DNA of 64,000 bases from Escherichia coli (GTDB lineage Bacteria; Pseudomonadota; Gammaproteobacteria; Enterobacterales; Enterobacteriaceae): assembly GCF_003018255.1 (NCBI RefSeq), contig NZ_CP027440.1. One strand, written 5' to 3'. The notes under the pieces were generated by a model. The model ran no database searches and was not told where the DNA came from. It saw only the letters and a list, made by a program, of their open reading frames with translations. Position numbers and translations under genes: made by a program. Of the stretch, positions 5,382 through 58,263 are shown piece by piece (position 1 is the first letter of the stretch; every line of letters begins with the position of its first letter).

Positions 5382-5495
5382 GGGGGCTCTGTTGGTTCTC
5401 CCGCAACGCTACTCTGTTTACCAGGTCAGGTCCGGAAGGAAGCAGCCAAGGCAGATGACGCGTGTGCCGGGATGTAGCTGGCAGGGCCCCCACCC
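5382..5495 (+). ncRNA. ffs: 4.5S RNA (signal recognition particle RNA)
   Basis: 114-nt sequence gggggctctgttggttctcccgcaacgc...ggcagggcccccaccc matches the 4.5S RNA sequence recalled from memory; located between ybaZ and ybaA as in K-12. Confidence 0.95.
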
Positions 5496-21026: not shown

Positions 21027-22958
21027 ATGAGTTATCAGGTCTTAGCCCGAAAATGGCGCCCACAAACCTTTGCTGACGTCGTCGGCCAGGAACATGTGCT
21101 GACCGCACTGGCGAACGGCTTGTCGTTAGGGCGTATTCATCATGCTTATCTTTTTTCCGGCACCCGTGGCGTCGGAAAAACCTCTATCGCCCGACTGCTG
21201 GCGAAGGGGCTAAACTGCGAAACCGGCATTACCGCGACGCCGTGCGGCGTGTGCGATAACTGTCGTGAAATCGAGCAGGGGCGCTTTGTCGATCTGATTG
21301 AAATCGACGCCGCCTCGCGCACTAAAGTTGAAGACACTCGCGACCTGCTGGATAACGTCCAGTACGCTCCGGCGCGTGGTCGTTTCAAAGTTTATCTCAT
21401 CGACGAAGTGCATATGCTGTCGCGTCACAGCTTTAACGCACTGTTAAAAACCCTTGAAGAGCCGCCAGAGCACGTTAAGTTTTTGCTGGCGACGACCGAT
21501 CCGCAGAAATTGCCGGTGACGATTTTGTCACGCTGTCTGCAATTTCATCTCAAGGCGCTGGATGTCGAGCAAATTCGCCATCAGCTTGAGCACATCCTCA
21601 ACGAAGAACATATCGCTCACGAGCCGCGGGCGCTGCAATTGTTGGCACGCGCCGCTGAAGGCAGCCTGCGAGATGCCTTAAGTCTGACCGACCAGGCGAT
21701 TGCCAGCGGTGACGGCCAGGTTTCAACCCAGGCGGTCAGTGCGATGCTGGGTACGCTTGACGACGATCAGGCGTTATCGCTGGTTGAAGCGATGGTCGAG
21801 GCCAACGGCGAGCGCGTAATGGCGCTGATTAATGAAGCTGCTGCCCGTGGTATCGAGTGGGAAGCGTTGCTGGTGGAAATGCTCGGTCTGTTGCATCGTA
21901 TTGCGATGGTACAACTTTCGCCTGCTGCTCTTGGCAACGACATGGCCGCCATTGAGCTGCGGATGCGTGAACTGGCGCGCACCATACCGCCGACGGATAT
22001 TCAGCTTTACTATCAGACGCTGTTGATTGGTCGCAAAGAATTACCGTATGCGCCAGACCGCCGTATGGGTGTTGAGATGACGCTGCTGCGCGCGCTGGCG
22101 TTCCATCCGCGTATGCCGCTGCCTGAGCCAGAAGTGCCACGCCAGTCCTTTGCGCCCGTCGCGCCAACGGCAGTAATGACGCCAACACAGGTGCCGCCGC
22201 AACCGCAATCAGCGCCGCAGCAGGCACCGACTGTACCGCTCCCGGAAACCACCAGCCAGGTGCTGGCGGCGCGCCAGCAGTTGCAGCGCGTGCAGGGAGC
22301 AACCAAAGCAAAAAAGAGTGAACCGGCAGCCGCTACCCGCGCGCGGCCGGTGAATAACGCTGCGCTGGAAAGACTGGCTTCGGTCACCGATCGTGTTCAG
22401 GCGCGCCCGGTGCCATCGGCGCTGGAAAAAGCGCCAGCTAAAAAAGAAGCGTATCGCTGGAAGGCGACCACTCCAGTGATGCAGCAAAAAGAAGTGGTCG
22501 CCACGCCGAAGGCGCTGAAAAAAGCGCTGGAACATGAAAAAACGCCGGAACTGGCGGCGAAGCTGGCGGCAGAAGCCATTGAGCGCGACCCGTGGGCGGC
22601 TCAGGTGAGTCAACTTTCGCTACCAAAACTGGTCGAACAGGTGGCGTTAAATGCCTGGAAAGAGGAGAACGGCAACACGGTGTGTCTGCATTTGCGCTCC
22701 TCTCAGCGTCATCTGAATAACAGTGGCGCACAGCAAAAACTGGCTGAAGCGTTGAGCACGTTAAAAGGTTCAACGGTTGAACTGACTATCGTTGAAGATG
22801 ATAATCCCGCGGTGCGTACGCCGCTGGAATGGCGTCAGGCGATATACGAAGAAAAACTTGCGCAGGCGCGCGAGTCCATTATTGCGGATAATAATATTCA
22901 GACCCTGCGTCGGTTCTTCGATGCGGAGCTGGATGAAGAAAGTATCCGCCCCATTTGA
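21027..22958 (+). CDS. dnaX: DNA polymerase III tau subunit (gamma subunit produced by -1 frameshift)
   Basis: 643-aa product with AAA+ Walker A GTRGVGKTS. Confidence 0.97.
   Translation: MSYQVLARKWRPQTFADVVGQEHVLTALANGLSLGRIHHAYLFSGTRGVGKTSIARLLAKGLNCETGITATPCGVCDNCREIEQGRFVDLIEIDAASRTKVEDTRDLLDNVQYAPARGRFKVYLIDEVHMLSRHSFNALLKTLEEPPEHVKFLLATTDPQKLPVTILSRCLQFHLKALDVEQIRHQLEHILNEEHIAHEPRALQLLARAAEGSLRDALSLTDQAIASGDGQVSTQAVSAMLGTLDDDQALSLVEAMVEANGERVMALINEAAARGIEWEALLVEMLGLLHRIAMVQLSPAALGNDMAAIELRMRELARTIPPTDIQLYYQTLLIGRKELPYAPDRRMGVEMTLLRALAFHPRMPLPEPEVPRQSFAPVAPTAVMTPTQVPPQPQSAPQQAPTVPLPETTSQVLAARQQLQRVQGATKAKKSEPAAATRARPVNNAALERLASVTDRVQARPVPSALEKAPAKKEAYRWKATTPVMQQKEVVATPKALKKALEHEKTPELAAKLAAEAIERDPWAAQVSQLSLPKLVEQVALNAWKEENGNTVCLHLRSSQRHLNNSGAQQKLAEALSTLKGSTVELTIVEDDNPAVRTPLEWRQAIYEEKLAQARESIIADNNIQTLRRFFDAELDEESIRPI
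22310..22350 (+). other. dnaX: dnaX programmed -1 ribosomal frameshift site: A AAA AAG heptamer, -1 frame stop UGA at 22319-22321, downstream stem-loop
   Basis: Heptamer at 22310-22316 in frame with dnaX codons; -1 frame reads AAA AAA GAG TGA; hairpin ccggcagccgctacccgcgcgcggccgg follows. Confidence 0.9.
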
Positions 22959-26754: not shown

Positions 26755-26885
26755 TCAAGCCGCAGCAGATCTGCTTTCGGGCAGGTCTGCTCATCCTCCT
26801 CAGGCAATACCTCTCACAGCAATTAGTTCTTCTTCTTCACTTTTCCGCTACAATTATCAACAAGTTGAATCGATAAGAGGCGGTA

Positions 26886-30260: not shown

Positions 30261-30274
30261 GTTATCGACCAGAC

Positions 30275-30333
30275 CGGACGACGATGGCATCCGTAGGCCG
30301 GATAAGATGCGTCAGCATCGCATCCGGCAATGG
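30275..30333. repeat. REP-like palindromic element between gsk and ybaL
   Basis: ggcatccgtaggccggataagatgcgtcagcatcgcatccggc. Confidence 0.6.
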
Positions 30334-30343
30334 AATCAATGTT

Positions 30344-35985: not shown

Positions 35986-36069
35986 ACACCGTCGCTTAAA
36001 GTGACGGCATAATAATAAAAATATGAAATTCCTCTTTGACGGGCCAATAGCGATATTGGCCATTTTTTT
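35986..36069 (+). ncRNA. chiX: sRNA ChiX (MicM/SroB)
   Basis: acaccgtcgcttaaagtgacggcataataataaaaatatgaaattcctctttgacgggccaatagcgatattggccattttttt matches ChiX as recalled; lies between ybaK and ybaP as in K-12. Confidence 0.9.
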
Positions 36070-36862: not shown

Positions 36863-36994
36863 ACGACCTCCCTTTGTGAAATATCATGCTAGCGCGCGGG
36901 GAGGGATGGCGCAAATGGAGTTGATTGTTGCACTTGCGCACAGTGCTTGTGTGCATTACAATGATTAAATAATGGACAAGGAGATGAGAGAGGA

Positions 36995-37297
36995 ATGGCT
37001 CAAAAGAAAAATATAAGGAGTTTTCGTGATGCCTGGTTGGCTGATTTTTTTGTCCATTCAACGCCACATCGAAAGATCCCTGCTGAAATCCATACCACGT
37101 TATCACGAAAGTTGGACATCATTAATGCTGCCACTTCTCATCGGGATTTACGCTCCCCTCCGGGGAACCGATACGAAGAGTTATCCGGGAAATTACAGGA
37201 ATACTCCTCCATTAGAGTGAATAAACAGTACCGACTGATTTTTAAATGGGTTAATGGCAAGGCCGAAGAATTGTTTTTAGACCCACACAACTACTAA
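36995..37297 (+). CDS. HigB/RelE-family type II toxin (putative mRNA interferase)
   Basis: 100-aa product with HigB-like layout (...NRYEELSGKLQEYSSIRVNKQYRLIFKWVNGKAEELFLDPHNY); 35 bp upstream of HTH gene ybaQ. Confidence 0.7.
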   Translation: MAQKKNIRSFRDAWLADFFVHSTPHRKIPAEIHTTLSRKLDIINAATSHRDLRSPPGNRYEELSGKLQEYSSIRVNKQYRLIFKWVNGKAEELFLDPHNY

Positions 37298-37332
37298 AAC
37301 ATAGCTGTCGTATTGACGAGAAAGGTAAAACT

Positions 37333-37731: not shown

Positions 37732-40236
37732 TTATTCCTTCGGTTTAAACCGCAGCAACCGGTTGGCGTTACTCACTACGGTAATCGACGAGAGCGCCAT
37801 TGCCGCTCCGGCGACCACCGGGTTAAGCAGCGTACCGGTGAACGGCCACAAAATACCGGCGGCGACCGGAATACCAATGCTGTTGTAGATAAACGCACCG
37901 AGCAGGTTCTGCTTCATGTTGCGCAGCGTTGCGCGGGAAATTGCGAGCGCATCCGCAACACCCATCAGGCTATGGCGCATCAGGGTAATCGCCGCGGTTT
38001 CAATGGCAACATCACTGCCGCCACCCATCGCAATACCGACATCCGCCTGAGCCAGCGCTGGCGCATCGTTAATGCCGTCGCCCACCATTGCTACCTGACG
38101 TCCTTCACTTTGCAGACGTTTGATCGCTTCGGCTTTACCGTCTGGCAGCACGCCGGCTATCACCTCATCAATCCCTGCTTCTTTAGCGATCGCATTGGCG
38201 GTGGTCGGGTTATCCCCGGTTAGCATCACCAGGCGATATCCCGCTTTATGCAGGCGTTGCAGCGCCGCCACGCTATCACTACGCAACGGATCGCGTACAG
38301 CCAGCAGGGCTACCGCTTTCCCGTCAACCGCCAGCAGCACAGGCGTTGCCCCTTGCGATGCCTGAGCTGAAATATCTGCTTCAATTGCTTTGGTATCGAC
38401 CTGTTGGTCATTTAACAGCGCCTGATTACCCAGCAATACCGCATGACCTTCAGCTTCACCGCTCACACCCAGCCCGCGCAATGTGCGGAAACCGTTGACC
38501 TGCGGCAGCTGCATATCACCTGCTTTATCGAGGATCGCCCGTGCCAGCGGGTGGCTGGAACCTTGCTCCAGCGCCGCCGCCAGACGCAGCGCCTGCGCTT
38601 CATCAACATCAGCAAATGTTTTTACTGCGACAACCTGCGGCTTCCCTTCGGTCAGCGTCCCGGTTTTATCGAACACCACGGTGTCGAGCGTACTGGCGCG
38701 TTGCAGCGCGTCGGCGTCCCGCACCAGCACGCCAAACTCAGCCGCCCGCCCGACGCCCGAAATAATCGACATCGGCGTCGCCAGTCCCAGCGCACACGGA
38801 CAGGCGATAATCAGCACCGTGGTGGCAATCACCAGGGTATAAACAATTTGCGGTGCCGGGCCAAAGAAATACCAGATTGCCGCACTGACCAGCGCAATGA
38901 CTACCACCACCGGCACAAACACAGCGGAGATTTTATCCGCCAGTTGACCGATTTCTGGCTTGCTGCTCTGGGCCTGTCGCACCATGCGAATGATCCGTGA
39001 CAGCGTAGTATGGCTGCCGACCGCACTGGCGCGAAACAGCACACTGCCGTCCTGTACCACTGTCCCGGCATGGACGCTATCGCCTTCGCCTTTTTGCTGC
39101 GGGATTGGTTCGCCCGTCAGCATCGCTTCATCCAGCCACGCTTCGCCCTGGGTAATTTCACCATCTACCGGCACCCGATCACCCGTCGTCAGGCGCAGCA
39201 ACATACCTGGCTGAACATCTGCCAGCGGCACGTTTTTTTCACCTTCGTTGGTGACCAGGCGCGCCGTCGGTGGGGTTAAATCGAGTAATTTCTCCAGCGC
39301 CTTAGAAGAACGCTGACGTGCGCGCGCTTCCAGCATATGACCGAGATTAATCAGACCGATAATCATCGCACTGGCTTCATAGTAAAGATGTCGCGCTTCC
39401 ATCGGGAACCACTGCGGCCACAGGTTGACGCTCATTGAATAGAGCCACGCCACGCCCGTACCCAGCGCCACCAGCGTATCCATCGTCGCTGCACCGTTCA
39501 GCAGGCTTTTCCATGCGCTGCGGTAAAAATGGCCGCCGGCGAAAACCATTACCGCCAGGGTTATCAGGCCGATAACCAACCACAGGCTGCGGTTGTCGGC
39601 GGTGACCATCATGTTATCGCCGATCATCCCCCAGACCATCACCGGGATACCCACCGCCAGTGCGACAATCGCCTGCCAGCGGAAGCGCTTCATCGTAGCG
39701 ACGGCGGTTTCTTGCTGGCGCTCGCGGCGTTTAGCGTCATCTTCAATCGCTTCCGCGCCGTAGCCCGCTTTTTCCACCGCCTGCACTAAATCTTGTGGGG
39801 AGGCACTGCCCATCACCAGCGCAGTACGCTCCGCCAGGTTTACCCGTGCCTGAGTGACGCCCGGTACGCTTTGCAACGCATTTTGTACGCGGGTGACACA
39901 GCTGGCGCAGCTCATGCCGCTCAGCAGCAACTGCTGGCTGTCATCGTCATCGGCGGTCGCTGCCGGAAGCGCCTCAGAAACCGCTGTCAGTGCTTCCGAC
40001 GGGATTGATGACTCCGCCAGCGGTTTAGCCTTTGGGTGGCTTACAGATGCGTCATAACCCGCTTGTTTGATGGTTTCGATCAGCTGTTCTGCACTGGCAG
40101 TCCCGGTAACGTGCGCTTCAGTGACAGACACATCCGCCTGCTCAACATCCGGGCGCTGTTCGAGACTTTCTTTCACGCGTTTAACGCAGTGACCGCAGGA
40201 CAGGCCGTCCAGGGTCAGGTCGATAGTTTGTGACAT
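37732..40236 (-). CDS. copA: Copper-exporting P1B-type ATPase
   Basis: 834-aa product with two N-terminal GMSCASC/GLSCGHC metal-binding motifs, [18 protein letters not shown]. Confidence 0.98.
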
Positions 40237-43258: not shown

Positions 43259-43989
43259 TTAAGGCTTGCGAAAATAGTCGTCCATTATTTTCGTCAGCTC
43301 CGGACGTTCCCCGTCATCATTGATGGCAAAATCCAGAAAAAAAGCATCTGCTTGCGGCGTTCGGTTTTGCGCCATCAACCGGAAGGTGAGGGGGCCTGAC
43401 CAGGTTTCGGATGGGCTGATGTGCTTATCAGGGCCGAAACTCTCCCATGCGTTGGGCGGTAATGTTTTGCACGCGGTGAGTTTTGGTATGTGGTATTGCA
43501 GCTCTGTTTTGTGCAGACATTCCCCGCCAGGAAATACCAGGGTTTGTTGCTCATCATTAAAATGGGTTGCCGTGCTGAGCACCAGTGTTTTGAGCGGTCG
43601 CCCTTCCAGCGCGGCGGCAGTAGCCTTATGGTGTCCGTCGAGCAGAACGCAGAGATAGGAATCAGGGAGATACCAGGCCAGAGCGCGGGCGATTCCAGTT
43701 TTCGAGAGCAGACAAAAACCGGGCGGCTCCCTGTTCACCCTCCGCAAAACCGCTGTAGACAAATTCCGCACAGGTAGGGCAACCAGCCTCGGACCAGAAA
43801 CGTATTAACGGGACATCCTTGCCAGCAGAGCGAATGGATAAGACCGTGCGAGTGCGGATCGTAAATCACACATTGACGCAGAAATCCTTTCCCGGACTTC
43901 ACCGAAAAAATGACGCCCGCAGCGGTATTTTTCAGCAGACGTACTTCAGGTTTTCGAAAGGGGAAAAAGCATGGCCACTCCTTAGCCAA
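43259..43989 (-). pseudogene. Hypothetical gene split into two overlapping reading frames (43735..43989 then 43259..43804); apparent frameshift
   Basis: Two minus-strand ORFs in different frames overlap at 43738-43804; the downstream frame is open upstream of its first start codon; no recognisable family. Confidence 0.4.
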
Positions 43990-44060
43990 AATTTCAGTTC
44001 CCTGAACTGTGCCAGAAAATTACGCTGGTGACTATTGCTCTGGAAATGGAAACAGTGTCC

Positions 44061-44267
44061 TTACCCATTAATCCCCGTTTGTACCGAAAGAATATGTTGC
44101 AAACTTTCTACCATAATGCGCCCCGACTGAAATAAGCCTTCCTGGATTTCATTGTTAACATTCACAGCGTGAACCAGGGAGGCTAATAACACCACTTGCA
44201 AGAAGGCAAAAATAAACGCACCGATAATCATAATATGCGTCAGGGGGATTTTCCTTTGCTCCTTCAT
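44061..44267 (-). CDS. Small single-pass membrane protein (68 aa), hypothetical
   Basis: Start overlaps the upstream lipoprotein stop (ATGA); one hydrophobic helix IMIIGAFIFAFLQVVLLASLV. Confidence 0.5.
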   Translation of the reverse strand: MKEQRKIPLTHIMIIGAFIFAFLQVVLLASLVHAVNVNNEIQEGLFQSGRIMVESLQHILSVQTGING

Positions 44268-44686
44268 TTTAAATAACCCACAAACTGGCCTTCTTTCATT
44301 AAGGCGACTTTTCCTGTGTGATGATAAACAATGACATTATACAGACCCGACTGATAAACCGTGGCATCGGCATTATCTTCATCTATGGCACATAATGAAT
44401 CATTGAGATAAGCAAAATTCTTACTACTCATTCTAAAGGTCATGCCAAATCCTTTATAAATGGCTTTTTTTGCCGCCTGGGCATGTTGTGCGGCTTCTGC
44501 ATTTTTAAATGCCTGCGCTTCAGAAGCACTTAAAATAGCCGTCTGGCGCTGCTGTTCTGCGAGATAACAGGTGTCATGGCTGACGCCCTGCGCCTGACAA
44601 TCTGCGATGCGGGAAGCGGGTGAGCTACAGCCAGCCAGTAATATAACCGCCAGCAGGGAAAAGGATTTAATGGAGCTATTCATCAT
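44264..44686 (-). CDS. Putative lipoprotein (140 aa), hypothetical
   Basis: Signal peptide with lipobox LLAGC; 4 Cys; downstream of the autotransporter gene on the same strand. Confidence 0.6.
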   Translation of the reverse strand: MMNSSIKSFSLLAVILLAGCSSPASRIADCQAQGVSHDTCYLAEQQRQTAILSASEAQAFKNAEAAQHAQAAKKAIYKGFGMTFRMSSKNFAYLNDSLCAIDEDNADATVYQSGLYNVIVYHHTGKVALMKEGQFVGYLK

Positions 44687-44771
44687 TGTTAACCTTAAAT
44701 AATGTGCGAATTAATGAAGAGGTGAAACCCGGCAAGCTTCCTTGCTCTTATTTATATTGAGGATTGAAATA

Positions 44772-45788
44772 TTAGAACGAATATCCTACGCCGACACCTG
44801 CGCCGAAATCAGATTGCGTATCCGCAGAAATACCGGCTTTAAGTACCGTATGCGTTCCGGCATTAAAAGATGTTCCGACAGACACCGCAGATTCACCGTT
44901 GAAGGTTCCCGCTCCCGCTGACACCATCATCACGTCACCGGTTTTAACCTGTGGTTGTGAGGCGATAGCGATGGCAGATGCAGTTCCCGCATTGGCTTCT
45001 TTACGGTTGTCCTCAACTTCGTTTTTCAGCGAACTGTAATGGTTATTGAGCGTGTTAATTTGTTGGCTGTTATCTGCGACCCGTTTTTGCGTGTTGCTTA
45101 ACTGTTGCTGCGTTTGTGCGGAATCTTGTCTCAGACTTTCAATTTGCTCATGTGCCTGGACAGACTTCTGCGCCAGACTTTGCATTTGTTTATCGTATTG
45201 AGCCCTTTCTTTTTGCTGTTGTGCTGCCACATCGGTTGTCAGTGCATTCATTTTCTGCCCTTGTTCCGTGGTAGTGCGCTGATTAGCCTCATTTTGAGCC
45301 GCCAGTCTGGCATTAATCATCTCCTGATAATGCGCAGTATTTTGCGTATCTCCAGTCGCGGCGAGCGTTTTTTGTGTGGCTACGATCTGCGCCTGTTGCT
45401 CTGTAATTTGCGTTTGCTGGGCATCAGTTACCGCAGACTGTCGGGCGTTGATCATGCTCTGATAACGGGCAGGTGTCTGTGTATCACCTGTAGCGGCAAC
45501 GGTTTTTTGTCCTGCGTCAGGATCTGTCTGGACAGTGGGAGTCTGAGTGGTATCAGGTGTTTCAGAAGGGATGTAGTGATGTTCAGTCAAATAGGTATAC
45601 GCAGCGGGGCTGTTGTCTGTGCGTTCTAAAAAGCGGGTAATCTTCTGCTCAATCTCCGATTGCGACATGCCAGAGTTAATGGCTGAAAGCTCTGTTGCCG
45701 CCGCTTCAATGGTATCACCAGCTAAAACAACAGGGCTGGATGTTGCTGAAATTATGAGTGCCAGTAAAGCTACGTTTACAGTTTTCAT
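44772..45788 (-). CDS. Trimeric autotransporter adhesin-like protein (type Vc, YadA-like C-terminal anchor), 338 aa
   Basis: Signal peptide MKTVNVALLALIISATSSPVVLA; Gln-rich coiled-coil stalk with a tandem repeat (ATGDTQ..YQ.MINAR); C-terminal anchor ...AGTASAIAIASQPQ...GAGVGVGYSF ending in aromatic residue. Confidence 0.75.
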   Translation of the reverse strand: MKTVNVALLALIISATSSPVVLAGDTIEAAATELSAINSGMSQSEIEQKITRFLERTDNSPAAYTYLTEHHYIPSETPDTTQTPTVQTDPDAGQKTVAATGDTQTPARYQSMINARQSAVTDAQQTQITEQQAQIVATQKTLAATGDTQNTAHYQEMINARLAAQNEANQRTTTEQGQKMNALTTDVAAQQQKERAQYDKQMQSLAQKSVQAHEQIESLRQDSAQTQQQLSNTQKRVADNSQQINTLNNHYSSLKNEVEDNRKEANAGTASAIAIASQPQVKTGDVMMVSAGAGTFNGESAVSVGTSFNAGTHTVLKAGISADTQSDFGAGVGVGYSF

Positions 45789-46154
45789 TCATTTTCTCTT
45801 GTTCAAAATAAGTCGCATTAATGTTTCTATAAGAAACAAATAATATTATTTTAAGAAATAAACTGCGTTGCAATTTAATCGAAATCTACGCCGCCATTTG
45901 TGTGATGTAAAGCGCATTTTTGTCTGGTGTAAGCGTAAACACCACCAATAAGAAACAAAAAATGTTTCTTATATAAATAAAATCGAAAATCATTTTGTGC
46001 TCTTTCAATGTAAAAAAGAGTAAAGACTTGTTTTGATAAGCGAAATAAATTCTGTTTCTGGACTAAACGTGAAGCGGTTCCTGATGTGTGCTAAAATGCG
46101 TTTCTTTGATAAATCTCAATTTTTAAGAGGTTTACGCCAGGCAGGAAAATTTAA

Positions 46155-46517
46155 ATGAATGAATTTGAGAAGATTTTTAATGAAATGAATCTGGACCGGG
46201 CATTGTTACCGATCCTTTTTCGTTCGAACCGGTCGACAGTGTGGAAGTATTTAAGCGGCGATAGTACGGCTCCTGCCTCTGCCATGTCGCTGATCATGCT
46301 GTTGCAGTTGATCCAGAAACGAAACCCCGATCTGTTAGCCGAATGGTTAACGCTTTCTGATTTCACCATTCCGCCAGAAGTTTACCTGGACCAACCTGAT
46401 TACTGGAAAGGGTGGGTGTATACCCAACACAAGGTCAATAAAAACGTCCTGGAATATCTAAAAAAACACTATCCGGATGAAGACCAAAAAAGTATGGGTA
46501 AAGGCCGGGAAGAGTAA
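46155..46517 (+). CDS. Hypothetical protein (120 aa), divergent from the autotransporter operon
   Basis: ORF with ATG start after an AT-rich 365-bp intergenic region; no family recognised. Confidence 0.4.
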   Translation: MNEFEKIFNEMNLDRALLPILFRSNRSTVWKYLSGDSTAPASAMSLIMLLQLIQKRNPDLLAEWLTLSDFTIPPEVYLDQPDYWKGWVYTQHKVNKNVLEYLKKHYPDEDQKSMGKGREE

Positions 46518-46519
46518 TT

Positions 46520-46620
46520 TTGCCTCTACTCGGCTATATGCCGGATGCGGCGCAAGCGCCTTATCTGGCCTACGATTCGGGCATATTTTGTAGGCATGAT
46601 AAGACGCGCCAGCGTCGCAT
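46520..46620. repeat. REP/BIME elements (two inverted REP units) at the island/ybbJ junction
   Basis: gccggatgcggcgcaagcgccttatctggcctac ... gtaggcatgataagacgcgccagcgtcgcatcaggc. Confidence 0.75.
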
Positions 46621-47078
46621 CAGGCGATGACCGCACGGATAATCAGCGTTATCCCTTCTATCGCAATCACCTCAACATGCGTACCTGCACTGAGATCCTC
46701 GCTGGCGCTGACAGGCCATGAACTGTCACCGACGCGCATATGACCACGCCCGTTGACCAGCGGAGATTCCAGAACAAAACGTCGGCCAATCAACTGCTGC
46801 CCGCGCTGGTTTAAATGACTGTCGCTGTGCTTTTGTTCGCGCACCCGCCGCGACAACCATTTCCACCACAGCCAGGCGGCGAGCAGCGTCAGGACGGCAA
46901 ACATTACCCCTTGCCACTCCCAACCCAGCGGCAGCAACCAGACCACCAGACCGGTAATCACCGCTGCCACGCCGCTCCACAACAGATAACCATTGCCGCC
47001 CAACATCTCGGCTGCCAGCAGCAAACCGCCGAGACTTAGCCAGAAAATATGTGGATGAACGACCATTAACTCCATCAT
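46620..47078 (-). CDS. ybbJ: NfeD-family inner membrane protein
   Basis: 152-aa product overlapping qmcA by 4 nt. Confidence 0.85.
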
Positions 47079-56933: not shown

Positions 56934-56967
56934 CCTTGACCCACGATATTCAGACAGTCGTTGTATC

Positions 56968-57849
56968 TTAAGTTGACGTTACCCGCTGACGTCGATATTC
57001 CCTTGGTGAGAGATAACCTAACGCACTATGCGGATGGGTTTCATTGTAATGCTCGATCGCCACTGCAAGGTTATGCAATGCCGTTCTTACATTCGGTTTC
57101 GGCATGAACGCGATGTAGTCTTCTTTCATCGTTTTCACGAACCTTTCTGCCATTCCATTGCTCTGAGGGCTACTGACTGCCGTTGTGCAGGGCTCCAGAT
57201 TCAACTCTCTGGCGAACTGCCGTGTTTCATGAGCTGTATAAGCCGAACCGTTATCAGTCAGCCACTGGATTGGCCGTTCCGCTCCTTTATCGCCAAAGCG
57301 TTTTTCTATTGCTCCTAACATGACATCCTGCACCGTTGCTTTGTCATAACCTCCCGTGCTTGCGGCCCAGTCTATGGCTTCACGATCGCAACAGTCCAGT
57401 GCGAACGTGACACGCAGTTTTGCGCCATCATCACAACCGAACTCAAAGCCATCGGAACACCAGCGCTGGTCGCTTTCCTTCACCGATATTCGGCCTTTAT
57501 GTTCCCGCTGCGGCCGTGAAGGTTTGTCATGTAACAACAACAGGTTATTTTCGCTCATTATCCGATAAACGCGCTTTGCATTCACGAACGGCACTCCTTT
57601 GTTACGGGACTGTCGTCTGAGAATGGCCCAGACACGACGATAGCCATATGTCGGCATATCGCTGATGATATCAAGGATACGTGCTAACACTTCCGCATCC
57701 GCAGCCTCATCACATCTGCGACGACGTTTATTCGGCTTATTACCAGATGTTTTCATCCGTTGTGCCAGTTGCGCACGCGACACGCCCAGAATACGGCTTA
57801 CCAGGGTTATTCCTTGTCCGTTGGCAACAAGGGCGCATGCGCTATCCAT
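56968..57849 (-). CDS. IS3-family transposase OrfB (DDE integrase core)
   Basis: Product contains ...WCSDGFEF...[12 protein letters not shown]...WLTDNGSAY...HPHSALGY..., IS2 InsD-like. Confidence 0.85.
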
Positions 57850-58232
57850 TTTCGCGACTGACCATACTCCACCGCTTCTTTGAGGATCTCAACTTCCATG
57901 GTTTTCTTACCCAGCAAGCGCTGTAACTCTTTTATTTGTTTTATAGCGGCAGCCAGTTCTGAGGCAGGAACGACATCCTCTCCGGCAGCAACAGCAGTGA
58001 GACTTCCTTCCAGATATTGTTTTTTCCACTTAAACAACAGGCTGGGCTGAATACCATGCAAACGCGCCACATGGGACACCGTCATACCGGGTTCCATTGT
58101 CTGCTGAATAATGGCGATTTTTTCCTGAGGAGTTTTACGTTTACGAAGCTCCTGCCCCAGCAAAATTCCAGTCATCTCAAAATTAGCACTAGTAGACATA
58201 TATCCAAGCCTATCTCTTATTTTAAGATACAT
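57807..58232 (-). CDS. IS3-family transposase OrfA (HTH)
   Basis: Product contains ...[43 protein letters not shown]..., IS2 InsC-like. Confidence 0.85.
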
Positions 58233-58263
58233 CCACTGTCTGGCGTTTCAAGGGGCCGGTTCA

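Follow-up and report, generated by a model that had tools for sequence, protein, structure and literature searches.

The canonical programmed −1 ribosomal frameshift cassette of dnaX, intact in an Escherichia coli chromosome

Introduction

Escherichia coli is the best-known host of the programmed −1 ribosomal frameshift in dnaX. About 50% of ribosomes shift at dnaX in vivo and then "terminate one codon later" (PMC5009743), and the reported frameshifting efficiencies are ~50–80% (PMC5389563, PMC6771820, PMC7282821). In vitro, frameshifting fell to 50% when the Shine-Dalgarno (SD) element AGGGAG was mutated, from 84% to 20% when the hairpin was deleted, and to 2% when the shift site was made non-slippery (PMC5389563). 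Spacings of 9–14 nt have been reported between the SD and a −1 shift site (PMC5009743). The dnaX stem-loop, which has the loop UACCC, has been placed at the mRNA entry channel and begins 11 nt past the first P-site base (PMC8861025).

Other systems resemble this one in outcome or in principle. The dnaX genes of Thermus thermophilus and Caulobacter also give tau and a shorter gamma from one gene, but by different mechanisms: transcriptional slippage in T. thermophilus, with stops in both alternative frames, and proteolysis in Caulobacter (PMC5009743). The −1 frameshift of copA, at C_CCA_AAG, is likewise programmed and yields a truncated product that ends one codon past the shift. It differs from dnaX in the heptamer, the gene and the downstream stimulator, and it lies outside the Rfam family RF00382.

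Here we analyse the dnaX locus in a 64,000-nt stretch of E. coli DNA (the whole of which we call the window). The frameshift cassette at this locus shares with that of E. coli K-12 all 65 nt, including AGGGAG, the 10-nt spacer, A_AAA_AAG, GAG-UGA and the 11-pair UACCC hairpin. It also shares the position of the shift at codons 428–430 of 643 and the predicted 431-aa gamma. Only the gene around the cassette differs (43 nt, 5 aa).

Results

The host gene

The window comes from the E. coli chromosome and aligns colinearly with MG1655 positions 471,065–531,620. The ORF that contains the cassette has homologues in 5424 of the 5426 complete E. coli genomes searched (top match 99.7%), and the gene order here, mscK-rsmS-priC-ybaN-apt-dnaX-ybaB-recR-htpG, is the expected synteny. 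Because of the E. coli genome matches and the apt-dnaX-ybaB-recR-htpG synteny, sequence comparison identifies the host gene as E. coli dnaX, encoding DNA polymerase III tau/gamma. Two of the 5424 matches in this search fall on records labelled plasmids.

Compared to MG1655, dnaX of the window has 97.8% nucleotide identity, with 43 differences in 1932 nt. MG1655 and the window show zero differences across 22188–22393 (206 nt), so that identity extends for at least 100 nt on the 5' side of the 65-nt cassette and for 38 nt on its 3' side; the nearest differing sites are 22187 and 22394. Alleles at least 99% identical to that of the window were found in only 69 of the 5424 genomes.

The 30 upstream differences from MG1655 are, every one, synonymous. 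All five amino acid changes in tau (S548N, D549G, A551T, R566S and M578T; window 22669–22759) sit in 31 codons (548–578) of the tau-specific C-terminal part, a patch whose sequence looks like a recombined or lineage-specific one. An Rfam match to STnc460 inside dnaX (22809–22898) was dismissed as chance (26 bits versus a gathering score of 70).

Table 1. Features of the dnaX frameshift cassette and of the rest of the window (positions are those of the window).
Feature	Position	Strand	Basis and remarks
dnaX ORF	21027–22958	+	ORF list; zero-frame product tau, 643 aa
gamma coding region	21027–22321	+	Frame arithmetic; zero frame to 22316, −1 slip, GAG, UGA
Full frameshift cassette, Rfam RF00382	22291–22355	+	Model positions 1–65 of 65
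Internal SD-like AGGGAG	22294–22299	+	Sequence; 10 nt 5' of heptamer
Slippery heptamer A_AAA_AAG	22310–22316	+	Phase check; codon 428 third base through codon 430
−1 frame GAG (Glu), then UGA stop	22316–22321	+	−1 frame translation
Stimulatory hairpin	22322–22351	+	MFE fold and Rfam consensus structure; 11 pairs
copA −1 frameshift site C_CCA_AAG	40030–40036	−	Within copA, 37732–40236 (−); correct phase
338-aa protein with YadA-like membrane anchor	44772–45788	−	Pfam PF03895, E = 1.1e-11; in cueR-ybbJ insertion
4.5S RNA (ffs)	5390–5486		Rfam; position as expected from MG1655
sroB/ChiX sRNA	35986–36069		Rfam; position as expected from MG1655

Slippery heptamer, stop codon and gamma product

The original prediction had described a dnaX frameshift signal made up of the heptamer A AAA AAG, an immediate −1 frame UGA and a GC-rich downstream hairpin. 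AAAAAAG is present as described and in the correct zero-frame phase (Table 1): it opens with the last base of codon 428 (GCA), and the zero frame reads GCA AAA AAG AGU GAA. The statement about the stop codon stands in part. A UGA is found in the −1 frame (22319–22321), but it is not immediate, as a GAG codon (Glu, 22316–22318) precedes it, in agreement with the published termination one codon past the shift (PMC5009743).

With this codon included, the predicted gamma consists of 430 residues common with tau plus Glu, 431 aa in total or about two-thirds of the length of tau, and its end at 22321 is also the end of the joined gamma CDS of MG1655 (YP_009518751.1). The remark that an ORF caller gives the full-length product only is borne out here, where the ORF list shows the 643-aa ORF alone. 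In the RefSeq MG1655 record the joined gamma CDS is annotated, and PGAP genomes carry a single "gamma/tau" CDS together with a "DnaX frameshifting element" feature.

By itself the heptamer says little, because 24 copies of AAAAAAG occur in the window (13.4 expected). Three of them are in dnaX. The other two, at 22440 and 22518, were ruled out as alternative shift sites, both being in the non-slippery phase AAA_AAA_G.

Stimulatory elements

The predicted GC-rich hairpin was confirmed by folding, and its end at 22351 is one base past the end coordinate given before. The 5' arm (22322–22333, with A22328 unpaired) and the 3' arm (22339–22351, with C22342 and G22345 unpaired) enclose the loop UACCC (22334–22338). 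The minimum free energy (MFE) is −19.7 kcal/mol (fold of 22317–22356). Of 200 dinucleotide shuffles, 5 were equally stable (z = −2.35); this z-score is only modest because any sequence of such GC content folds well. Counted from 22311, where the P-site codon AAA (22311–22313) begins, the hairpin starts 11 nt downstream, at 22322; this position and the loop are those of the dnaX stem-loop already described (PMC8861025).

A third stimulator, absent from the original prediction, is the SD-like AGGGAG upstream of the heptamer. It is the SD that was mutated in the published in vitro work (PMC5389563), and its 10-nt spacer fits the reported range (PMC5009743).

The whole cassette

The whole arrangement matches RF00382 (DnaX ribosomal frameshifting element) over the full length of the model, with 96.8 bits (E = 1.8e-21; gathering score 35). 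In all, the window contains matches to just three Rfam families, RF00382 among them. A chance arrangement was ruled out on the score of the complete cassette, not on the heptamer, which is common by itself.

Base for base, the 65-nt cassette is that of MG1655. Of 5423 E. coli genomes, 5372 have the 65-mer at 99% identity or more; one-base variants in the 95–99% identity band account for the other 51. Inspection of the sequence shows that the heptamer and the −1 frame stop, on whose integrity the original prediction had been made to hang, are both intact. One genome matched dnaX but gave nothing in the megablast search with the 65-mer (5424 versus 5423 genomes).

Conservation of the hairpin across species

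We scanned one genome per species with the pattern AGGGAG-N10-AAAAAAGAGTGA, leaving the hairpin unconstrained. This returned 120 loci, 77 of them inside dnaX homologues with 64–98% amino acid identity. The 77 enterobacterial loci, from Citrobacter, Enterobacter, Klebsiella, Kosakonia, Pantoea, Erwinia, Serratia, Buttiauxella, Mixta and others, gave 59 distinct 65-mers. The SD box, spacer, heptamer and GAG-UGA that these Enterobacterales share with E. coli are fixed by the search pattern, and the independent evidence is the hairpin and the flanks only.

All 59 cassettes fold with a hairpin that begins 5–6 nt past the heptamer, a distance shared with E. coli. The MFE ranges from −16.9 to −30.4 kcal/mol (median −20.3). 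Among the cassettes, the outer stem CCGGC/GCCGG is nearly invariant. Paired positions elsewhere in the stem change together: the closing pair 32–61 is A-U in 40 of 60 sequences and G-C, unlike E. coli, in 18; pair 36–57 goes from G-C to A-U in Mixta; and pair 42–50 does so in one Enterobacter (L054). Across the 60 sequences, hairpin cells were paired in 87–90% of cases, compared to 25–55% when the 3' partners were slid by 1–3 columns.

Loops vary from 3 to 8 nt, and two pairing registers are seen in the inner stem: five pairs and a bulged C in the E. coli type, and four contiguous pairs (GCGC/GCGC) in the Enterobacter/Pantoea type. Because of these two registers, the comparison indicates that the helix persists as its sequence changes.

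In a codon alignment of 51 full-length dnaX genes, synonymous conservation over the hairpin codons 432–442 was 0.847, compared to 0.677 ± 0.07 elsewhere, and only 1 of 600 other 11-codon windows was equally high. The flanks on both sides of the cassette were at background level (0.64–0.65). These data indicate that the synonymous constraint is real and is confined to the cassette. The 206-nt stretch that is free of differences from MG1655 had raised the idea of a cis element extending beyond the 65 nt; with the flanks at background, this is unsupported.

Several loci returned by the scan stood apart. In Candidatus Pantoea persica (L053 3006–3033) the SD box, heptamer and GAG-UGA are kept and the hairpin region is rearranged (GCCGGCAGCGUCGGCU...). 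Its fold is different and the weakest of all (−16.9 kcal/mol), and the hairpin stimulator may be decaying in this symbiont. A locus labelled "Chryseobacterium sp. 18061" (L066 3024–3051) is an enterobacterial dnaX with 86% amino acid identity to the tau of the window. Its cassette is closely like that of the sister record "Citrobacter sp. 18056" (L063), and the assembly is probably mislabelled or contaminated.

The pattern AGGGAG-N10-A_AAA_AAG-GAG-UGA was also found in Collinsella, at L035 9769–9796 (−) and at about 35 other loci (for example L003, L004 and L013). It is there in slippery phase, near the start (first ~11 codons, MKGESVPKKSE...) of a sigma-70 (rpoD-like) gene that is conserved across Collinsella. 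We ruled out that these loci are a distant dnaX-like cassette, as they lie at the beginning of a gene for a sigma-70 factor and no hairpin is evident. The pattern is probably a coincidence multiplied by many species bins; a −1 shift at the Collinsella site, if it happened, would abort synthesis of the sigma factor.

Other features of the window

At the copA site, GGC UAA comes next in the −1 frame and gives the 70-aa CopA(Z) copper chaperone. The site is intact and identical to MG1655 from −30 to +110, and copA overall differs at 101 nt.

An insertion of ~3.4 kb compared to MG1655 lies between cueR and ybbJ (window 43264–46621). Besides the gene for the protein with the YadA-like anchor (Table 1), it includes three ORFs (43259–43771 −, 44264–44686 − and 46155–46517 +) for which no Pfam matches were found. 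This insertion is probably an accessory adhesin islet.

The rhs region (56935–60572) diverges from MG1655 rhsD: ~1.3 kb is unmatched and the following 2.3 kb is at 92.5% identity. The C-terminal/immunity segment is replaced compared to MG1655 rhsD, and the divergence is typical Rhs tip variability. The ybaP-ybaQ intergenic region (36924–37326) is ~330 nt longer than in MG1655 and unalignable, and smaller intergenic replacements were seen at 26756–26808 and 30268–30342.

Discussion

We conclude, with a probability of about 0.97, that the programmed −1 ribosomal frameshift cassette of E. coli dnaX is present in the window in its canonical, intact form and that gamma and tau should both be made from it. 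The cis elements, their phase and spacing, the identity with K-12 and the evolutionary conservation of the hairpin were seen directly here. Gamma should be produced in this strain, and the efficiency of its production should be as expected from the identity with the K-12 cassette and from the published K-12 experiments. The original prediction had called this a known mechanism, which agrees with our data, as the cassette has the sequence of K-12 MG1655, where −1 frameshifting to gamma has been shown experimentally (PMC5389563, PMC5009743).

The mechanism would proceed as follows. With the ribosome at A_AAA_AAG, one Lys codon would be in the P site and the other in the A site, and pairing between the 16S rRNA anti-SD and AGGGAG, 10 nt upstream, would still persist. 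The hairpin, which begins 11 nt past the first P-site base, would then stand at the entry channel for mRNA. The SD-anti-SD duplex and the hairpin would impede the EF-G-driven translocation of the two tRNA-Lys, so that translocation is slowed. In a large fraction of ribosomes, both tRNA-Lys would then re-pair one base back, on AAA_AAA, and resolve the block. Shifted ribosomes would read GAG and stop at UGA, yielding gamma (431 aa), and unshifted ribosomes would stay in the zero frame and yield tau (643 aa).

No tRNA or 16S rRNA genes lie within the window. The trans-acting parts of the system are a single tRNA-Lys with a modified U34, which reads both AAA and AAG, and the canonical anti-SD of 16S rRNA. 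Both are expected here because the organism is E. coli.

Gamma could in principle arise without any ribosomal slip. If RNA polymerase slipped on the A-run, as it does in T. thermophilus dnaX, where stops are found in both alternative frames (PMC5009743), the A6 run of the heptamer would be the place for it. Productive transcriptional slippage, however, occurs on runs of ~9 A or T (PMC5009743), and only six are present here. The SD-like box and the hairpin with its compensatory changes are stimulators directed at the ribosome, for which transcriptional slippage would have no need, and a defined dnaX mRNA frameshifts efficiently in in vitro translation (PMC5389563). We consider this origin of gamma extremely improbable.

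We give next to no credence to the idea that the motif is a chance occurrence or a relic, with tau alone being made or with gamma cut from tau by proteolysis as in Caulobacter (PMC5009743). AAAAAAG is frequent enough, in the window and within dnaX itself, to make the thought natural. Against it stand the score of the cassette with the curated RF00382 model, its identity with the experimentally validated K-12 version, the purifying selection at synonymous sites and the compensatory stem changes across genera.

The cassette might also work with an efficiency, or a tau:gamma ratio, unlike that of K-12, through the 43 other differences in dnaX or through trans-acting differences. Efficiency is tunable, since two substitutions in the stem-loop can lift frameshifting to 176% of wild type (PMC5009743). 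The differences from MG1655, however, lie more than 100 nt upstream and more than 38 nt downstream of the cassette, and the synonymous constraint stops at the cassette, with no sign of distal cis elements. We therefore regard a ratio different from K-12 as very unlikely. The more specific proposal that the minority dnaX allele sets such a ratio, by long-range pairing of the mRNA with the cassette or by way of trans factors, is likewise very unlikely. The reading we prefer is that the canonical −1 ribosomal frameshift operates at this locus.

The mechanism is already known, in its best-known host, and its presence here opens no new question. The finding has annotation value only: a plain ORF caller gives tau alone, and a joined gamma CDS (21027..22316, 22316..22321) is worth adding. 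As to its biology, the strain retains the usual route to both subunits of the clamp loader, tau and gamma.
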